64,000 nt of DNA, from assembly GCA_016839585.1 (NCBI GenBank), contig JAEOTZ010000004.1, positions 1-64,000 of the forward strand, in the 5' to 3' direction. Of the stretch, positions 13,646 through 64,000 are shown piece by piece (position 1 is the first letter of the stretch; each line of letters opens with the position of its first letter). The stretch comes from Promethearchaeota archaeon (lineage in GTDB: Archaea; Asgardarchaeota; Lokiarchaeia; Sigyniarchaeales; SOKP01). Both the position numbers and the translations under genes were made by a program. Below the pieces are notes generated by a model, which saw only the letters and a list, made by a program, of their open reading frames with translations, had not been told where the DNA came from and ran no database searches.

Positions 13646-14857
13646 CTACCTTACAATCTTTTTAGCTAAATCTTCAAGTTCTTTTTCAGAAATGAAATTC
13701 TTAGTTTGAAGTCTTTCCTTAATTTTATCACGAATGATATTTAAATGACTATTAGTAGGATTTAGGTTCATTTTTTTCAATTTTGCTTTTATTGCCCTAT
13801 CTTGAAGGGTAGTTGCTCCAAATATCAGCTTTCGTGTCTGACCAACCACATAAGGTTGAAATAATTCCCAAGTAACCCAATTACCGAGTAAAATCTGCTC
13901 AACGTGTAAATCAGATTCATGTATAAAACAATTTTTTCCTACAATAGCTTTATGAGATTGCAAAGGGGTTTTGCTATACTTTTCGATAAGTTGAGAAACC
14001 TCCATAATTTTTCCTAATTTTAAATTTAGATTAAACCCATACAAAATCTCAAGAGCCATTATAACTTCTTCAGTTGCCGCATTTCCTGCTCTATCTCCTA
14101 AACCATTAAATACCACATCAACAACTTCAGCTCCTCCTTCTACTCCTGCAAGGGTAGTTGCCACGGCTAATCCAAGATCATTATGCGTATGGACTTCTAT
14201 AGGTATATCTTTAACTATATTTTTAGTAAAAACGACTGTTTCTTTAAATGCTAATGGCAACGCACATCCGTTTCCATCATAAACCACCACCCGATCTACT
14301 CCAGCATCTACAGCAAGTTGCAAAAATTTTTGCCAAAATCGTGGAATAACACGACCAGAACCAAAAGCTACATATGCTCCCTGAGATTTTGCATATTCTA
14401 TACCTTCGGCTATTCTATCAAACACTTCTTTCTTAGTTTTTAAAGTGGGGCTGGGGACGAGTAAGAAATTAATATAATCTGCTTCTGAAGCTAAGATATC
14501 ATCAACTTCTTTTTTTACATCTTCCACATACATTCTCGCGTGTGATGATAATTTCATTTTTATGCCTTCTTTTTTAAGAGCTTTAAAAGTGTCACTATGT
14601 TCTTTAATTCCTGCAGCATATCCTACTTCAATTTCTTTTATTCCCATTTCTTCCAATAATTTAGCAATTTCAACCTTTTGGTCAATAGTAAAATAGGTTC
14701 CTGGTGTCTCTTCACCCTCTCTTAATGTGTCATCTTTAACAATTATTTTCTCTGGCAATTTCATTTGATTTCTTACTGATTCTGCAAAATTCCATTCATA
14801 ACTCCACCAACGTTGTTCTTTATCCATTCGCATCGAAGCCCACGCATTTAACCACAA
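13646..14857 (-). CDS. second DRE-TIM metallolyase paralogue
   Basis: KDDTLREGEETPG, HTHNDLGLA, LGDRAGN, FIHESDLH; TTG start 6 nt after AAGGTGA. Confidence 0.85.
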   Translation of the reverse strand: MWLNAWASMRMDKEQRWWSYEWNFAESVRNQMKLPEKIIVKDDTLREGEETPGTYFTIDQKVEIAKLLEEMGIKEIEVGYAAGIKEHSDTFKALKKEGIKMKLSSHARMYVEDVKKEVDDILASEADYINFLLVPSPTLKTKKEVFDRIAEGIEYAKSQGAYVAFGSGRVIPRFWQKFLQLAVDAGVDRVVVYDGNGCALPLAFKETVVFTKNIVKDIPIEVHTHNDLGLAVATTLAGVEGGAEVVDVVFNGLGDRAGNAATEEVIMALEILYGFNLNLKLGKIMEVSQLIEKYSKTPLQSHKAIVGKNCFIHESDLHVEQILLGNWVTWELFQPYVVGQTRKLIFGATTLQDRAIKAKLKKMNLNPTNSHLNIIRDKIKERLQTKNFISEKELEDLAKKIVR

Positions 14858-57784: not shown

Positions 57785-59698
57785 TTGATGCATAACTTTT
57801 TAGACTACCTAAAGAAGGATAATATAATAGAGACACTTATTTCACAAGGGATTAATAAACAATTCCATAAAGATTTCCTTAAAAAAATAATAGATAATAT
57901 AGAAAAGTCTCAAAATTTAATTCAAAGTTCTTCGGAATCAATTAATTATAAATCTAATTTTCTTAATCTTGATTTATTTGGAAATATTTATGAAAGGATA
58001 TTAAATCATAAAGAAAGGAAGGCTTTGGGTGAATTTTATACTTCTTTCTCAATTGTGGATTGTATTTTAAATAAAATAGGTTATGATTATAAGGATGACA
58101 TTGAGCGTAAGAAACTAATTGATATAAGCTGCGGTTCAGGAAGTTTTCTAATTCAGGCTATTCGAAGATTAATAGATCGTTATAAAATAATTTACAATAA
58201 AAAAGAAATTGCTGAACTTTCTCTGAAAGAATCTAAATCAATAATTCAAGGAGTGAAAGATAATATTTACGGAATAGATATCAATCCTATTGCATGTGTT
58301 TTATGCCAACTCAATATTCAATCCGTTTTATTTGATATTTTTAAAATTATAAGAAAGTATGAAGATAATTTTCAATTTCCTAAATTTAATATAAACAATA
58401 CAAATACTTTAAGTTGCAATGAAAGAGAATCATTCAACTTTGTTGTAGGAAATCCCCCTTATTTATTTATTAGAGACATTCCAATAGAACAGAGAAGATT
58501 AATTGAGTCGAGTGATTTTGATACAAAAGATGGTCAATATGATTATTATCAAATTTTTATAGAGCTTGGCATTAAATTTTTGAAAGATCAGGGATTCCTT
58601 GGGTATATTGTTCCAGATTCACTTCTGGCTTTATCAAATCGATCTTCAATTAGGAAATTTATTTATAATTATACTAAAATTAAAGAGGTTTACCATACTG
58701 GTCCAAAATTTGATGATCTTATTGTCTCAAATATTATTTTAATTCTGCAAAAAGAAAGATTAAAAGAAAAAAGAGAAAGAAATATAATCCAAATTCATTA
58801 TGGATTTCTAAAAAAACATCAAATTACTCAAAAATTAATTGAAAAATGGGATTATAAATTTTTGATAAATTTAAATTCTATGGATAGTGTCATTCTAGAC
58901 CATTTAAATAATAAATTTCCAAAGTTGAGCGATTTAATAAACAGTGAAAATTTTACTATTCTTTTAAGTAGAGGTACTGAATTAGGAAAAGAAGGTAAGG
59001 TAATTTTTTGTACTAAATGTCAAAAATATTTACCATTACCAAAAAAAGAATTGAAATGCAAAGTCTGTAATAGTTATTTAAATGAGGAATTAATAGAAAC
59101 TATAATTTATGAAAATTTTACAAGAGGAAAAGAGAGAAACTTAAAACCTTTCATTTATTCAATAAATCGATACAAAATTAAAGATTTGAAATATATTGAC
59201 ATTGAGAAACAGGGGATAAACTACAAGAACTTAAAAATTTACGAAAACCGAATTATTATTAGGCAATTAAGTGAACATAATCTTATTTCTGCTACTTATG
59301 ATAAAGATTTTTCACTTACTTCCCAATCTTTTTACAATTTGAAAATATTAAATTCAAATACTGCTGAAATTAATCATTTATATGTTTTAGGGATTATTAA
59401 CTCCACACTTCTCTCATATTATTTTATAAAATCTTTTGGTTCCTACAAAAAACTGTTTCCCAGAATATTAATCGAAAAAATTAAAGATTTCCCAATCAAA
59501 ATTCCTAAGACAAATGAAGAAAGACAATTAGCAAGAAAAATAGGAGAAAAAGTCTCTCTTTTGCTTAATGTAACTGAAATGAATAGTAATTTTAATCTTA
59601 ATATTCAAAAAAAAATTGATCTCCTAGTATTTGAGTTATATCAAATTCCAACAGTAAATCAAGAGTATATTTTCGATTTTATGAATAATTTAAATTAA
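57785..59698 (+). CDS. N6-adenine DNA methyltransferase, gamma class (Eco57I/TaqI-like) with target recognition domain
   Basis: GEFYT, DISCGSGSFL, YGIDIN, VGNPPY; TaqI_C-like IIIRQ...LGIINS.L. Confidence 0.88.
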   Translation: MMHNFLDYLKKDNIIETLISQGINKQFHKDFLKKIIDNIEKSQNLIQSSSESINYKSNFLNLDLFGNIYERILNHKERKALGEFYTSFSIVDCILNKIGYDYKDDIERKKLIDISCGSGSFLIQAIRRLIDRYKIIYNKKEIAELSLKESKSIIQGVKDNIYGIDINPIACVLCQLNIQSVLFDIFKIIRKYEDNFQFPKFNINNTNTLSCNERESFNFVVGNPPYLFIRDIPIEQRRLIESSDFDTKDGQYDYYQIFIELGIKFLKDQGFLGYIVPDSLLALSNRSSIRKFIYNYTKIKEVYHTGPKFDDLIVSNIILILQKERLKEKRERNIIQIHYGFLKKHQITQKLIEKWDYKFLINLNSMDSVILDHLNNKFPKLSDLINSENFTILLSRGTELGKEGKVIFCTKCQKYLPLPKKELKCKVCNSYLNEELIETIIYENFTRGKERNLKPFIYSINRYKIKDLKYIDIEKQGINYKNLKIYENRIIIRQLSEHNLISATYDKDFSLTSQSFYNLKILNSNTAEINHLYVLGIINSTLLSYYFIKSFGSYKKLFPRILIEKIKDFPIKIPKTNEERQLARKIGEKVSLLLNVTEMNSNFNLNIQKKIDLLVFELYQIPTVNQEYIFDFMNNLN

Positions 59699-59700
59699 AT

Positions 59701-59877
59701 TTATTTTTCTTGTTTTTTAACATAATAATTTGTTAAAATTTTATCCCATTTGTCTGCTAATTCGTTTAATTTCGTTTTTTTAAATAATTTAACTGCTCGG
59801 TCTAAGATCTTCGCTATGTTCTCTTCATATTCTAAGATATCTTGGTTTTCATCTTTTAAATACACAAATCCTTTCAT
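59701..59877 (-). CDS. small hypothetical protein (~58 aa from ATG, MKGFVYLKD...)
   Basis: Short helical ORF; upstream TTG extension looks like intergenic sequence. Confidence 0.4.
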   Translation of the reverse strand: MKGFVYLKDENQDILEYEENIAKILDRAVKLFKKTKLNELADKWDKILTNYYVKKQEK

Positions 59878-60028
59878 GTATAAATAATGGAAAAAAATCA
59901 AATAAAAAATATTATAGTATGGAGATGTAGTCAAGATGTAGTCTAAAAGATGATTTTAGTAATATCTAAATATAGATATTTTTATATTATCTAACAATAT
60001 TATATTCTTAATTGTATAATCAACAAGT

Positions 60029-61024
60029 ATGAAAACTGATGAAAAAATGGAAAAGCTACCCGATGAAACTCTTCTAAAACCAATATTAATAAATTACATG
60101 AATGAGATTGATGGGGTACTAGCGGTAGCGATATGTGATAGAAATGGATTTATTATTTCTTCGGAATTTAAACAACAAGCGGCTGATGAATCAGTAATTG
60201 GTGTTATTTCGGCAATTCTTGACAGCTATATTGACAGAATTAAAAGCGAATTTGGATCTTTTGGAAATTTTTTTAATATTACAATTACTGGTGATAAAAA
60301 ATTCGCATTCGCTAGTATGGGTCCACATTCAATTCTAACCACAGTTGCAGACCCGTCAACTTCCGATGTTGAATTAAAAGTCTATTCTGAACATGTAGCA
60401 AGTAAAATTGAACTAGTTTTGAAAGGTAATGAAGATGTGTCTCCTCAAATTCCTGAGATAATAAAGGCATTGTCTAAAACTCGAGGTGGACAACTTTCAA
60501 AATTGGAGGGAGAGTTTTCAAATAAATTAATATTAACTGGAGATTATGCAGTTGGTAAAACATCTCTTATTAGACGATTTGTTGAGAATAAATTTGAAAA
60601 GGATTATATCTCTACTATTGGGGTACAGATTTCAAAAAAGATCGTTAATATAAGTGAGCAAACAAAAATGAATTTCATCATTTGGGACATCGGTGGACAG
60701 GTTAAACAAATGGCACCGTATCGAAAAAAATTTTATACTGGTACTAATGCTGCATTTATTGTTGTAGATCGAACTCGCCCAGATAATTTAAAAAGTGTTG
60801 ATTTTTGGTTTAATGATATCAAAAAACAAATTCCTAAAGATATCTCAATTGTAATAGTTGGCAATAAATCCGATTTAGTTGATGAAATAGTTATTAGTGA
60901 AGATGACATAAGAACTATTGCAAAAGAATTTGGTTTCCATTACATTCTTACCTCTGCCAAAACTGGAGTTGGTGTTAATGATGCTTTCTTATATGTTGCG
61001 TACAGAGTTATAGAAATTCTATAA
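60029..61024 (+). CDS. Roadblock/LC7 domain fused to Rab-like small GTPase
   Basis: N-term GVLAVAICDRNGFIISS roadblock; C-term GDYAVGKTS, STIG, WDIGGQ, NKSD, TSAK. Confidence 0.9.
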   Translation: MKTDEKMEKLPDETLLKPILINYMNEIDGVLAVAICDRNGFIISSEFKQQAADESVIGVISAILDSYIDRIKSEFGSFGNFFNITITGDKKFAFASMGPHSILTTVADPSTSDVELKVYSEHVASKIELVLKGNEDVSPQIPEIIKALSKTRGGQLSKLEGEFSNKLILTGDYAVGKTSLIRRFVENKFEKDYISTIGVQISKKIVNISEQTKMNFIIWDIGGQVKQMAPYRKKFYTGTNAAFIVVDRTRPDNLKSVDFWFNDIKKQIPKDISIVIVGNKSDLVDEIVISEDDIRTIAKEFGFHYILTSAKTGVGVNDAFLYVAYRVIEIL

Positions 61025-61113
61025 ATTGTAAGAAACAAACTTTTTATTTGCTCGACTTCTTTTAAATAATAGATAATTTTAATATTGAAATCATTTAATG
61101 GAGGTTAGATAAG

Positions 61114-62034
61114 ATAGTATTAAAAGTTGCATTCAATCAAATATTAGCAACCTGAAACGCAGCTGGCTATATAATGGGTTTTTCAATTAAAGAAATTACA
61201 TACAAACAAAGATATCTAATATACTTAACAGAACAAGAATACTCAGGACCTTGGTTTAGTTTTAAATTAAAAGGAAAAACAATAGGGACAATTCCTGTAA
61301 TTTTAAAAAACGTAGAACCGACCCCTGTTTATAATATGGTTAATACCCGTATGGGTTCTGTTATTCATAGAGTTACTCTTGATTTCAATATCACAGAATA
61401 CCTGAAAAAACTTATGAAAGAAGGTAAATTAAAACATCATCCATTTAAGAAAAAAGAATTCGTTCGCTTGTATATAGATATTTTTAACCGTCCAAAAGTA
61501 CCTTTTATTAATACATATTTTACATTAAAAAATATTTCAGACTACAATTTAAACGATTTTTCAATGTATTTTGTATTTGACTTTGATATTAATGGACTTG
61601 AAGGATTTGATAACGATTTTTCAGGATATGATGAAGAAAGTGATATTATTTATCAATATGACAAAACAGGGTTACATGGGGGCTTTTCTCCCCTCTCTAA
61701 ATCAACAAATTTCGAATCCTGTTTAACAAAGGATTTTAAAATAAATAATGAAAATTTAAATCTTTCAAATACATTATATAAGGGTCCTGGAGAGATTCTA
61801 TCAGCATTACAGATTGAATTCATGACTTTAGAACCTAATCATTCATTTCAAACCGCTTTAGTAATTTCTGGTGGAGAAAGCAAAACTGAGTTAATAGAAA
61901 ATATACAAGCAGGAAAAAGTAATGCTATAAAATATTTAGGACAGGTAAATAGATCAGTTAAATCAGAGCAACGGAATTTACAAGAGGAGGCATTTATTAA
62001 ATTGAATATACAAGAAGGGAAGGAATGTGAATAA
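61114..62034 (+). CDS. candidate selenoprotein of unknown function (UGA at codon 14); at minimum a 286-aa hypothetical protein from 61174
   Basis: GGAGGTTA-6nt-ATA, then VLKVAFNQILAT-TGA-NAAGYI-MGFS in frame; SECIS-like hairpin directly after the stop. Confidence 0.65.
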
Positions 62035-62035
62035 A

Positions 62036-62116
62036 TAAAATCCAATTTGATGATTCAAATAAAAAACCTTTATTCGGAAGTTATTTGATGAATACTCTGC
62101 GCGAGTGAGGATTTTA
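62036..62116 (+). ncRNA. eukaryote-type SECIS-like structured element in 3'UTR
   Basis: TAAAATCC/GGATTTTA basal stem; ATGAT/TGAA GA-tandem core; TCAAATAA/TTATTTGA upper stem; AAAA opening the apical loop. Confidence 0.65.
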
Positions 62117-62133
62117 ACATATTAATTATTCAA

Positions 62134-63198
62134 TTAATAGTTAAAATCATATTTTTGATAATTCAGAATAAATTTGTTATTAACATTATTAGAACTCTTT
62201 ATTTTATATAATAGAATATCTCGTTCTTGTTTTGTAATAACAGGAAATTTATAGTGGACAGAATTATATCTTATTTCTTTATTTTTCTTCTGATATTTTT
62301 TTATGAAATTGACATGCTGATTTAGTCTATCATTTAATAATTCAAGATTCAGTTGTTTAATATTCTCTATATTTTTTTTAAATATATTCATGAATTCTGA
62401 GTTAATTTCATACCCAATTGAGTTTCTTGCAGAGATCATTGCTGCCAATGATGTTGTTCCTGTTCCCCAGAAAGGATCTAAAATTATATCTTCATATAAA
62501 GAATACATATTTATTAAACGACATGGTAATTCTAAAGGATAAGCTGCAGATCGCTCTCTTAATTTTTTTTGATTATTATCGTTTGTTTTTAAAATTTGAG
62601 GTGTTCCTCTGATATCTACCCAAATATCTGAAAACCATTTATTCCTTTCTTCCCAGAAAAACGCGCTGTTATATCTATTTTCCGATTTTGGGGTTATATT
62701 GCGTATATTTTGTCCTTTCCTAAATATTAAAATATACTCGTGTTCAAGAGTGACATACGCATTAGGAGGTAACATTCCAGAACCAAGGAATTTATTTGGA
62801 CTATTTGTTGGTTTTCGCCACAATATACAAGGGAGTTCAATAAAACCTTTATGTTGGAAAAAGTTGGAAACTTTAACATGATTGGGATATAATTGAAAGG
62901 ACTTACCAATTTTTCTTGTAGAATCTCCTATATTGATGCATACTATTCCCCCTAATTTTACTACTCGAACAACTTCATTCCATACTTTATCTAACTCTTC
63001 ATGCATCAAATTAAATGCTATTCTACCTTTTTCTTCTTCGAGTGCTTTTTTAATCTTATGATTTAAAGAAGAAAATAATGAATCCCACATTTCAATCATA
63101 GGATAAGGAGGTGAAGTTACCATTAATTCTATGGAGTTTGGTTCAACTTCGCGCATTTCAGATGAATTTTTAAAATATATCTTATGAGTTGTTTCCAT
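62134..63198 (-). CDS. N4-cytosine/N6-adenine DNA methyltransferase, beta class
   Basis: VTSPPY before DPFWGTGTT; HEYILIFRK. Confidence 0.9.
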   Translation of the reverse strand: METTHKIYFKNSSEMREVEPNSIELMVTSPPYPMIEMWDSLFSSLNHKIKKALEEEKGRIAFNLMHEELDKVWNEVVRVVKLGGIVCINIGDSTRKIGKSFQLYPNHVKVSNFFQHKGFIELPCILWRKPTNSPNKFLGSGMLPPNAYVTLEHEYILIFRKGQNIRNITPKSENRYNSAFFWEERNKWFSDIWVDIRGTPQILKTNDNNQKKLRERSAAYPLELPCRLINMYSLYEDIILDPFWGTGTTSLAAMISARNSIGYEINSEFMNIFKKNIENIKQLNLELLNDRLNQHVNFIKKYQKKNKEIRYNSVHYKFPVITKQERDILLYKIKSSNNVNNKFILNYQKYDFNY

Positions 63199-63317
63199 TA
63201 TCTTTTTTGGTGCTATCTATTAATCTGTATCAAATAAAAATAATTAAAAATTCAAATTCTTATACTTCAATATTTCATTTAAATTTATATAAATAATTAT
63301 CAAATATTAGATATATT

Positions 63318-64000
63318 ATGCGTAAAAGTGCTAAAGTAAATCAAGTAATCTTAATAATTCTAGATGATGTTAGAGCAGAACATTTATTTAATTTGATGAG
63401 GGAAGGAAAGCTTCCAAATATAACTCAAATTGCTGAACATGGCATAATATGTGAAAGTTGTGTTACTTCCTTTCCAAGTGTCACCCTACCTTGTTATGCA
63501 GATATCATAACCGGTTCCAATTCCGGCTATTATCCTAAAGAAGGAAGTGGAGTTCCTAATTATCATTGGCTCAATCGGACAGATCCTCCTTCAGAAAAAA
63601 AGAAACCACCTTTTATTCGTAATTATAGTAAACGACGTGGTATATTTAAAATTAACAAAGACATTGGTTCAAATGTTAAGACTATTTTTGAGCAAGCGGG
63701 TGATGGAAATTTTTTAAGCGCTACTAGTTTTCTATACAGAGGTTCTACATTCACTACTTCAAAAGAGTTTAAGGCAGAATTAATACTAAAAAGAATTGAA
63801 GATATTTATAATAATCCTGGAGAGATTTTTGCCGATAAGGAAATCCCAAAAATAAGTGTAGGATATATACCACATACTGACCATTTAATGCATGAAAGGG
63901 GATTTGATCATCCTGACTATATAAATCTTGTCCTTGATTGTGATAAATATATTGGGTCGTTGATTAAAACACTTAAAGATACTGAAACTTATAAGGATAC
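63318..64000 (+). CDS. alkaline-phosphatase-superfamily (nucleotide pyrophosphatase/phosphodiesterase) protein, 3'-truncated
   Basis: MRKSAKVNQVILIILDDVRA...GKLPNI...TSFPSVTLP...TDHLMH; open to the window end, absent from the ORF track. Confidence 0.85.
   Translation, partial: MRKSAKVNQVILIILDDVRAEHLFNLMREGKLPNITQIAEHGIICESCVTSFPSVTLPCYADIITGSNSGYYPKEGSGVPNYHWLNRTDPPSEKKKPPFIRNYSKRRGIFKINKDIGSNVKTIFEQAGDGNFLSATSFLYRGSTFTTSKEFKAELILKRIEDIYNNPGEIFADKEIPKISVGYIPHTDHLMHERGFDHPDYINLVLDCDKYIGSLIKTLKDTETYKD

Follow-up and report, generated by a model that had tools for sequence, protein, structure and literature searches.

Selenoprotein genes of Asgard archaea have been cataloged by comparison with families already known. 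In Lokiarchaeota, five selenoprotein families were reported, along with a 3'-UTR element, lokiSECIS, whose features are an AUGA motif, a 9-bp stem, five apical adenines, a loop-closing G that is ultraconserved and follows an A, and a GA on the 3' side; the accompanying search for new families relied on known selenoproteins or Cys homologues (Mariotti 2016, PMC4989117). More than 400 Asgard genomes were later searched by homology to known families, yielding seven: SelD, FrhA/VhuU, HdrA, FrhD/VhuD, Prx-like, AhpF-N-like and DsbA-like, five of them widespread and two rare (Huang 2024, PMC11227280). A 2026 review repeats this seven-family list, Sun 2021 adds no family, and our literature search returned no paper joining "selenoprotein" with "Promethearchae". 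The published lokiarchaeal genes (VhuD/FrhD, HdrA, VhuU/FrhA, SelD/SPS and PrxL; PMC4989117, PMC11227280) are characterized by an in-frame UGA and by a 3'-UTR element with an AUGA_GA core, an upper stem of ~9 bp and apical adenines. A type II form of this element, distinguished by a mini-stem, has been reported mainly for SelD (PMC4989117, PMC11227280).

Here we describe a gene that shares all of these features, including the type II mini-stem, and that uses the same genome and machinery, yet encodes a protein unrelated to the published lokiarchaeal selenoproteins, having no thioredoxin, hydrogenase, Hdr or SPS domain. It differs from the published genes further in that the Sec residue falls within a 20-residue N-terminal stretch behind a non-AUG start, and that no UxxC or CxxU motif is present. 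The gene lies in a 64,000-nt stretch of DNA (hereafter, the window) from Promethearchaeota archaeon (assembly GCA_016839585.1, contig JAEOTZ010000004.1, positions 1-64,000 of the forward strand; Lokiarchaeia; Sigyniarchaeales; SOKP01). We assign a probability of about 0.9 to the reading that 61114-62034 (+) is a genuine selenoprotein gene of 306 residues, whose family has not previously been recognized as one of selenoproteins; the estimate was reached without peptide, 75Se or ribosome data. The recoding mechanism, directed by lokiSECIS, is one already known; the novelty lies in the family, its predicted fold, its conserved AUA start and its inferred partnership with a GTPase. An earlier note on this DNA had proposed an undescribed selenoprotein family hidden by both a non-AUG start and a UGA, and our analysis supports that proposal. 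Because Sec precedes the annotated start and stands behind a non-AUG codon, homology-based searches could not find the family. In the expression pathway that we propose, a strong Shine-Dalgarno (SD) sequence on the mRNA would promote a start at the conserved near-cognate AUA, the weakness of this codon probably being compensated by the strength of the SD; UGA codon 14 would then be recoded to selenocysteine by Sec-tRNA(Sec) and archaeal SelB/EFSec, as directed by a type II eukaryote-like SECIS located 2 nt past the stop and ~0.9 kb downstream of the UGA, and the predicted product would be a stand-alone beta-supersandwich without a catalytic domain. The features of the locus are as follows.

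60029..61024, + strand: upstream gene, Roadblock/LC7 and Ras-like small GTPase, 331 aa (Pfam Ras 1.8e-36, weak Robl_LC7)
61100..61105, + strand: Shine-Dalgarno GGAGGU, 8 nt ahead of AUA, read from the sequence (GGAGG(T) 6-8 nt before the start in related loci)
61114..61116, + strand: inferred start codon AUA, near-cognate non-AUG (onset of codon periodicity; Met/ATG aligned in Cys forms)
61114..61173, + strand: N-terminal extension, 20 codons, missed by public annotation (protein-level conservation)
61153..61155, + strand: in-frame UGA, codon 14, inferred to be read as selenocysteine (invariant in relatives; Cys aligned in distant homologues)
61174..61176, + strand: internal AUG (Met21), the public-annotation start (invariant in the Sec clade; no SD ahead)
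61114..62034, + strand: complete CDS, 306 codons plus TAA (62032-62034) (predicted beta-supersandwich, C-terminal helices, invariant C-terminal Cys)
62037..62115, + strand: type II eukaryote-like (loki) SECIS (present with covarying pairs across 79 loci)
62037-62043 with 62109-62115, + strand: SECIS lower stem
62050-62053, + strand: SECIS AUGA
62055-62062 with 62081-62088, + strand: SECIS upper helix
62063-62066, + strand: SECIS apical As
62067-68 with 62076-77, + strand: SECIS mini-stem
62090-62091, + strand: SECIS 3' GA
62094-62106, + strand: SECIS side hairpin

The coordinates on which the original proposal rested (GGAGGT at 61100, ATA at 61114, and TGA at 61153 as the single UGA, at codon 14, of a 306-codon frame) were all reproduced from the sequence, as was the beginning of a SECIS-like hairpin 2 nt past the stop codon, at 62037. 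The frame reads (M)VLKVAFNQILAT, TGA at 61153, NAAGYI, and continues into the ORF called from ATG 61174. It is open between an in-frame TAA at 61096 and the TGA at 61153-61155, an interval in which no canonical start (ATG, GTG or TTG) occurs in frame. ATG 61174 is preceded by no SD-like sequence, in agreement with the earlier note, and the AGGTGA-6nt-TTG arrangement near 14857 that had been cited there as a parallel for the spacing is present, on the minus strand. Downstream, the neighboring gene encodes a DNA methyltransferase on the opposite strand.

The 286-aa protein called from ATG 61174 has ~400 homologues. Among the 120 matches listed, all are 285-289 aa in length, all derive from Lokiarchaeia (Promethearchaeota) assemblies, and those that are named are termed "hypothetical protein"; in these listed homologues public annotation truncates the gene. 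When the DNA before each ATG was read in a comparison set of 80 loci, the 60 bases upstream of the ATG were found to align ungapped and to be conserved as protein in 75 of the 80 Lokiarchaeia loci (two having a one-codon deletion beside the start). The order in these 75 loci is GGAGGT, 6-8 nt, ATA, conserved peptide, TGA, N-x-x-G-Y-[VIL] and ATG, and the extension has the consensus (M)VLKV-x-[FW][NH][DEQ][VI]LAT-U-N-x-x-GY-[VIL]. Per-position entropy, computed over 73 aligned orthologous loci, revealed that from -60 onward second codon positions hardly vary and third positions are unconstrained, a pattern unbroken through the TGA and into the ATG ORF; upstream of -60 codon periodicity was absent. 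Had homologues simply begun at the MGFS methionine without conservation upstream, the selenoprotein proposal would have been refuted; the peptide preceding the UGA is instead maintained as protein.

Since the periodicity sets in at -60, behind the SD, we infer from conservation alone that a near-cognate AUH codon, placed after a strong SD, initiates translation. Relatives have ATA at this position in 67 loci, ATT in four, ATC in three and TTG in one, and an SD-like 5-mer stands before only ~11% of long ORFs in the genome. Archaea do not usually start translation at AUA, and a literature search found no archaeal precedent for it. Bacterial infC is an example of a gene with a conserved AUU/AUA-type start. 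It resembles the present gene in having a near-cognate AUH start under selection, with a good ribosome-binding site ahead, but differs in that the initiation machinery here is archaeal and that evidence of autoregulation is lacking here.

Met21 AUG never varies within the Sec clade, but Cys forms have F, I, V or N at the aligned position; AUG 61174 is a possible fallback start, its use as a start not having been shown. The invariance of this AUG, its location only 18 nt past the UGA, its choice as start by all gene callers, and the absence of an SD from most genes of this genome would also be compatible with a different arrangement, in which the UGA does terminate translation, the 13-codon frame being a regulatory uORF, the protein a product of reinitiation or leaderless translation from AUG 61174, and the 3' element a kink-turn with another role. 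We hold this to be very unlikely. The six codons from the UGA to the AUG exhibit the same coding pattern as their surroundings, with a Gly using all four third bases, a Tyr and an aliphatic residue, and three further lines of evidence presented below (the 3' element, the Cys-form homologues and the predicted fold) also count against a uORF.

Returning to the selenocysteine reading, the TGA is without any variation in 73 of 73 aligned orthologous loci, and a single in-frame TGA occurs in ~119 of the 124 genomes of the window's family, in matches running from position 1-3. Beyond these aligned UGAs, distant homologues have Cys at this position, and none has the Trp, Arg or Gly that the earlier note had considered diagnostic of a simple nonsense mutation. 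A nonsense mutation or an assembly error in a decaying gene would account for a bare stop codon and nothing more; it is refuted by the comparative data, in which ~119 genomes, each assembled independently, have the same TGA and the sequence on either side of it is under purifying selection. TGA also serves as the terminator of the same gene in several orthologues, and UGA is therefore an ordinary stop in these organisms. This termination, together with the fact that other genes are uninterrupted by TGA, bears on whether the codon might be read by a near-cognate tRNA (Trp, Cys or Arg), or under a lineage-specific change of code, rather than as Sec. An open frame with a single UGA is equally expected from such decoding, but a conserved SECIS would be needless under it, and the genome contains the Sec machinery as well as further selenoprotein genes with SECIS elements; we accordingly give it very little credence.

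The recoding element proposed for this gene is an 80-nt RNA directly after the stop codon, conserved in 79 loci, in which it begins 2-12 nt past the stop of the UGA-containing gene. From 5' to 3' it is composed of a lower stem, an internal loop, AUGA, an upper helix, adenines, a mini-stem, A-G, GA, and a side hairpin. The upper helix contains eight Watson-Crick pairs and a basal U.U or C-G (9 bp counting the basal pair), its Watson-Crick pairs being 99.5% paired, with compensatory changes in four loci (L072, L029, L059 and L009). Five apical adenines (AAAAA) follow the helix, four in the window copy; AAG precedes the 3' strand of the helix and an A-G closes the loop. These columns are invariant or nearly so, as are those of the AUGA (62050-53) and the GA (62090-91) in the 79 loci. 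The GA sits directly 3' of the upper helix and is succeeded by the small side hairpin and the second strand of the lower stem. The mini-stem is CC/GG in most loci, with one pair formed in 75 of 79 and the other in 33 of 79, where the alignment is imprecise; taken together, 68% of its cells are paired. For the element as a whole in the 79 loci, 92.6% of cells are paired, versus at most 55% when partners are slid, and double-sided changes affect 14 of 20 pairs, versus 5.1 in shuffles. Folded by itself, the window copy exceeds shuffles by only a modest margin (z = -1.9), and support for the structure therefore comes from comparison and not from the single sequence.

To place the element among others in the window's own genome, a covariance model built from it (R1) was used to search that genome. 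R1 recovered its own element at 95 bits and one other strong match (42.5 bits, E 2e-5), situated directly behind a VhuD/MvhD-type gene that has two in-frame TGA codons and adjoins HdrA; the architecture of this match is that of the gene's own element, side hairpin included. Once the filters were switched off, weak matches (22 bits) appeared directly 3' of both SelD genes. An Rfam search over 59000-64000 placed no credible family, whether SECIS, snoRNA or any other, on the element, a non-match that is expected because published SECIS tools also missed lokiSECIS in Lokiarchaeota (Mariotti 2016, PMC4989117). The element matches the published description of lokiSECIS, in its Asgard "type II" eSECIS-like form; its role in Sec insertion is inferred, in the absence of reporter or binding data. 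It departs from published lokiSECIS in one respect, an extra conserved side hairpin on the 3' strand, which is also found in the VhuD and SelD elements of this genome. That the element is built like the SECIS found 3' of VhuD and SelD in this genome is a further argument against the uORF explanation, in which it would have to serve some other end.

Two UGAUGA-like boxes and a terminal stem are also properties of C/D sRNAs, and the element could in principle be a C/D-box sRNA gene, or else a terminator, that follows the gene by chance. Such an identity is scarcely credible: there are no conserved CUGA D or D' boxes, the 5' box in most loci is AAUGA and not RUGAUGA, the two boxes are joined by a long covarying upper helix of a kind that C/D sRNAs lack, and no snoRNA family is matched in Rfam. 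Moreover, the element invariably occurs 2-12 nt past the stop of a UGA-containing gene, and R1 matches the 3' UTRs of known selenoproteins.

A lack of Sec machinery in the genome would have argued against selenocysteine, but components of that machinery were identified in the window's genome, which is 99% complete. SepSecS is present (489 bits), as are a SelB-like factor (242 bits, or 244.1 bits with its neighbors in frame, at the cut-off of 242.25), a PSTK-like kinase (146 bits, below the curated cut-off) and two SelD genes (Sec-SelD), each with one TGA. A tRNA-Sec candidate with anticodon UCA adjoins SepSecS; its score with the Rfam tRNA-Sec model (34.6 bits) is below threshold because a 31-nt insertion interrupts the T-loop. 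ARAGORN detected no tRNA-Sec in the window's genome or in L092. The tRNA-Sec, SelB and PSTK matches are thus all at or below curated cut-offs.

Relatives that bear Cys in place of Sec were sought with a profile of 53 full-length sequences, in which Sec was entered as Cys, against 1.8 billion representatives. Eight distant relatives of 272-322 aa were retrieved from sister Lokiarchaeia families (P0128, P0130, P0132, P0139, P0151, P0158, P0137 and P0142), with matches reaching the N-terminal extension. All eight have Cys at the Sec column, where it is the second Cys of a CxxC; Met falls exactly at the AUA position in five of the eight, and the C-terminal Cys of the Sec form is common to six. The surrounding context, I-C-x-x-C-K-x-x-G-Y/F in the Cys form versus I-L-A-T-U-N-x-x-G-Y in the Sec form, has identical spacing. 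The two forms are alike in their similar length, their N-terminal segment and a DFDIxG motif, whereas the Cys forms differ in having only 17-27% identity to the Sec form, an AUG start, and CxxC rather than xxxU. The extension is in this way homologous to the N-terminus of proteins with no interruption, with Cys at the UGA column, which is difficult to reconcile with a regulatory uORF. The earlier observation that the protein has no UxxC or CxxU motif holds for the Sec clade, in which both are absent, and is refined by the Cys forms: their CxxC shows that the family at large does include a motif of redox or metal type.

The distribution of the two forms was surveyed in 161 genomes of the class. 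In the window's family the gene is found in 123 of 134 other genomes (124 with the window's own). Three sister families gave weaker matches, with E-values of 1e-18 to 1e-33 and without an in-match stop, and three other families in the survey gave no match. Cys-form genes in two closed genomes (G013 and G016) and on a metagenomic contig (L106) have an ATG start, and no SECIS-like sequence was seen after their stop codons; the hairpin thus accompanies the UGA copies, in 79 loci, and not the three Cys-form loci inspected. A fourth Cys-form gene (L107), also with an ATG start, showed a weak R1 match over its stop codon (18.8 bits, E 0.13), and an R1 search 3' of one further Cys-form gene found nothing. 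SepSecS is also present in three closed Cys-form genomes (G013, G016 and G021). The Sec/Cys split does not track the presence of the machinery, and the Sec form is therefore a lineage-specific conversion rather than a consequence of having the machinery.

The earlier note had described the protein as none of the known Lokiarchaeia selenoproteins, and as beta-rich and loosely reminiscent of a glucoamylase-type N-terminal sandwich; both statements are borne out. No homology to any of the seven families in the literature was detected (Pfam/NCBIfam at E <= 1; the fold is not that of a thioredoxin-like protein, a hydrogenase or SPS). At this threshold Pfam and NCBIfam offered no family for the 306-aa form or for the Cys forms, and the 286-aa ORF likewise lacks a Pfam family. 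A protein-atlas feature search returned only hypothetical archaeal clusters and a weak GH94-supersandwich lead (0.81), and an exact look-up of the protein from one related locus (L006) returned no record. An AlphaFold2 model of the 306-aa form (pLDDT 80, pTM 0.81) is mostly beta, with three short C-terminal helices. The first 20 residues are of low confidence (pLDDT 40-54); the extension is predicted to supply the first beta-strands of the sandwich, with Sec at the end of the second strand. In an exhaustive structural comparison the top matches were the GH94 N-terminal supersandwich (8rf9, Z 19.1; 2cqs, Z 17.9), GH15 glucodextranase (1ulv, Z 18.8) and glucoamylase (1lf6, Z 18.4), and GH116 (7w2t, Z 17.8), with 218-239 residues aligned at 2.9-3.7 A; galactose mutarotases were clearly lower (Z near 12), and Foldseek was concordant (E ~1e-9). 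Because the top matches run from residue 1 to residue 280 of the model, the predicted fold takes in the extension, a placement again at odds with a uORF peptide.

The N-terminal domains of GH15, GH94 and GH116 enzymes have the same beta-supersandwich fold as this protein, but share only 10-14% identity with it, and the (alpha/alpha)6 catalytic domain of those enzymes is absent here: the protein ends after the three short helices, at residue 306. Relatives found were ~233-322 aa, longer fused forms being outside the search. There being no catalytic domain in the model, nothing suggests glycosidase activity. We know of no Sec or Cys center in the N-terminal domains of GH15, GH94 or GH116 enzymes and, to our knowledge, Sec has not been found in a beta-supersandwich fold in other selenoproteins. 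The CxxC of the Cys-form relatives and the conserved C-terminal Cys lead us to infer that the Sec site is most likely a redox-active or metal-binding center of a protein whose biochemical role is unknown. Sec and Cys forms alike retain a DFDINGxxG loop, which by sequence alone resembles DxDxDG calcium sites.

A separate observation concerns five loci, all of the window's genus (L006, L023, L025, L045 and L051), that contain 28-32 extra nt directly after the TGA. The insert lengths (28, 29, 31, 31 and 32 nt) keep no reading frame, and these loci still conserve the upstream peptide, the TGA and the SECIS. In each insert CUUG pairs with CAAG over 4 bp, the 3-nt bulge AAU comes next, and the fold continues into an inner helix whose loop varies; three of the five loci add an outer exon helix. 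When each of the five genomes was searched for further copies, only the one in this gene was found, so that the insert is not a multicopy element; on the protein tree, of which only a quick version was made, its occurrence is patchy. A bacterial-type SECIS and a gene-60-like ribosomal hop were both considered and rejected, there being no frame kept and no matching landing codon. The shape of the insert fits the HBh' class of bulge-helix-bulge motifs, and symmetric cuts in its bulges would restore ACU-UGA-AAU. Asgard genomes are rich in tRNA introns and mostly encode two EndA paralogues, on which grounds a spliced mRNA intron is plausible but, with no RNA data found for the insert-bearing locus L023, unproven.

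These elements can be assembled into a broader and decidedly speculative interpretation, that the gene is organized as a switch sensing selenium and has had an unusual history at the RNA level; we think this improbable as a whole, though not to be dismissed. A weak AUA start with a Sec codon 13 codons later might make full-length output dependent on selenium supply. When Sec-tRNA was scarce, translation might terminate at UGA14 and reinitiate at the invariant AUG 18 nt downstream, giving a form without the first two strands and the Sec center, while the 28-32 nt hairpin at the Sec codon in five species would be an intron of the archaeal splicing endonuclease whose removal regenerates the ACU-UGA-AAU junction.

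The genomic setting of the selenoprotein gene is also conserved. A Roadblock-Ras GTPase gene lies directly upstream on the same strand, at a distance of ~70-175 nt, in 75 loci, and in L106 the Cys-form gene is likewise immediately preceded by a gene for a GTPase of the Ras/Arf family (40% identical). This constant pairing supports a functional link, and the selenoprotein probably works with the neighboring Roadblock-Ras GTPase, an inference that relies on synteny only.

Asgard archaea are the reference point for the origin of the eukaryotic selenocysteine system. To their repertoire this gene adds a widespread selenoprotein, carried by most genomes of one large Lokiarchaeia family, and ties it to a member of a eukaryote-like signature system, the Roadblock-Ras GTPases. 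The contrast between its Sec and Cys forms presents a clean Cys-to-Sec transition, from CxxC to xxxU and from AUG to AUA with gain of a SECIS, in which the origin of new selenoproteins may be studied.

The window's genome carries further parts of a selenocysteine system, located as follows (L numbers denote loci fetched for comparison).

G000:C86:59756-59872 (= L092:1501-1617), minus strand: tRNA-Sec candidate with anticodon UCA, adjoining SepSecS
G000:C5:26616-28714 (L081, L082): two tandem SelD genes, each with one in-frame TGA
G000:C47 (L102:1049-1504 and 1529-1615): VhuD/MvhD-type gene with two in-frame TGA codons, then a single SECIS

The tRNA-Sec candidate carries a 31-nt insertion in its T-loop; its score lies under the Rfam threshold, and ARAGORN does not detect it. 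Each SelD gene is followed by a separate SECIS-like element, scoring 22 bits with R1, the covariance model built from the conserved 3' SECIS element of the supersandwich gene. The VhuD/MvhD-type gene overlaps the 3' end of an HdrA-like gene, and the SECIS behind it has a 3'-side hairpin matching that of the window element.

Among orthologues of the 306-aa supersandwich protein, the most divergent UGA-bearing locus, L078, has a 3' element of another kind at 2363-2450, which combines AUGA and GA with a helix richer in GC and a long A/U loop; it lacks the mini-stem, and R1 only just picks it up. Its unlikeness to the rest indicates that the SECIS type is able to change within this family. The orthologues in L009, L010, L014, L029, L032, L039, L060 and L076 terminate in TGA with the SECIS a few nucleotides downstream, the stop in L076 overlapping the AUGA core itself; a UGA so near the SECIS is evidently not recoded.

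Residues 7-8 of the 306-aa protein (window 61132-61137) covary across the family: 40 loci have F-N, 33 have W-H, and no intermediates occur among the loci whose upstream regions were read. Immediately 3' of the Sec codon, and just upstream of the ATG at ~2501 in each case, five loci (L006, L023, L025, L045 and L051, corresponding to genomes G065, G094, G103, G069 and G072) bear a hairpin insert of 28-32 nt, its shape resembling a bulge-helix-bulge: the central helix is CUUG/CAAG, the bulge is AAU, and the loop capping the inner helix is variable. These lengths do not keep the frame; the SECIS and upstream peptide are nevertheless conserved in all five. The insert is a candidate for an mRNA intron cut out by the splicing endonuclease; apart from cbf5, no archaeal precedent for this is known.

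The supersandwich gene lies in the following neighbourhood of the window.

57785-59698, plus strand: Eco57I/TaqI-like DNA methyltransferase gene, flanking the gene pair
60029-61024 with 61114-62034: Roadblock-Ras GTPase gene and supersandwich protein gene, a conserved pair
62134-63198, minus strand: N4/N6-type DNA methyltransferase gene, flanking the pair on the other side

About 28 related loci have a gene for a close homologue (>60% identity) of the N4/N6-type enzyme immediately downstream, on the other strand. The pairing with the GTPase gene is common to the Sec form (75 related loci) and to the Cys form, the distant homologues with Cys at the Sec column (L106); its conservation across both suggests that an Asgard small GTPase has the supersandwich protein as its partner or effector.
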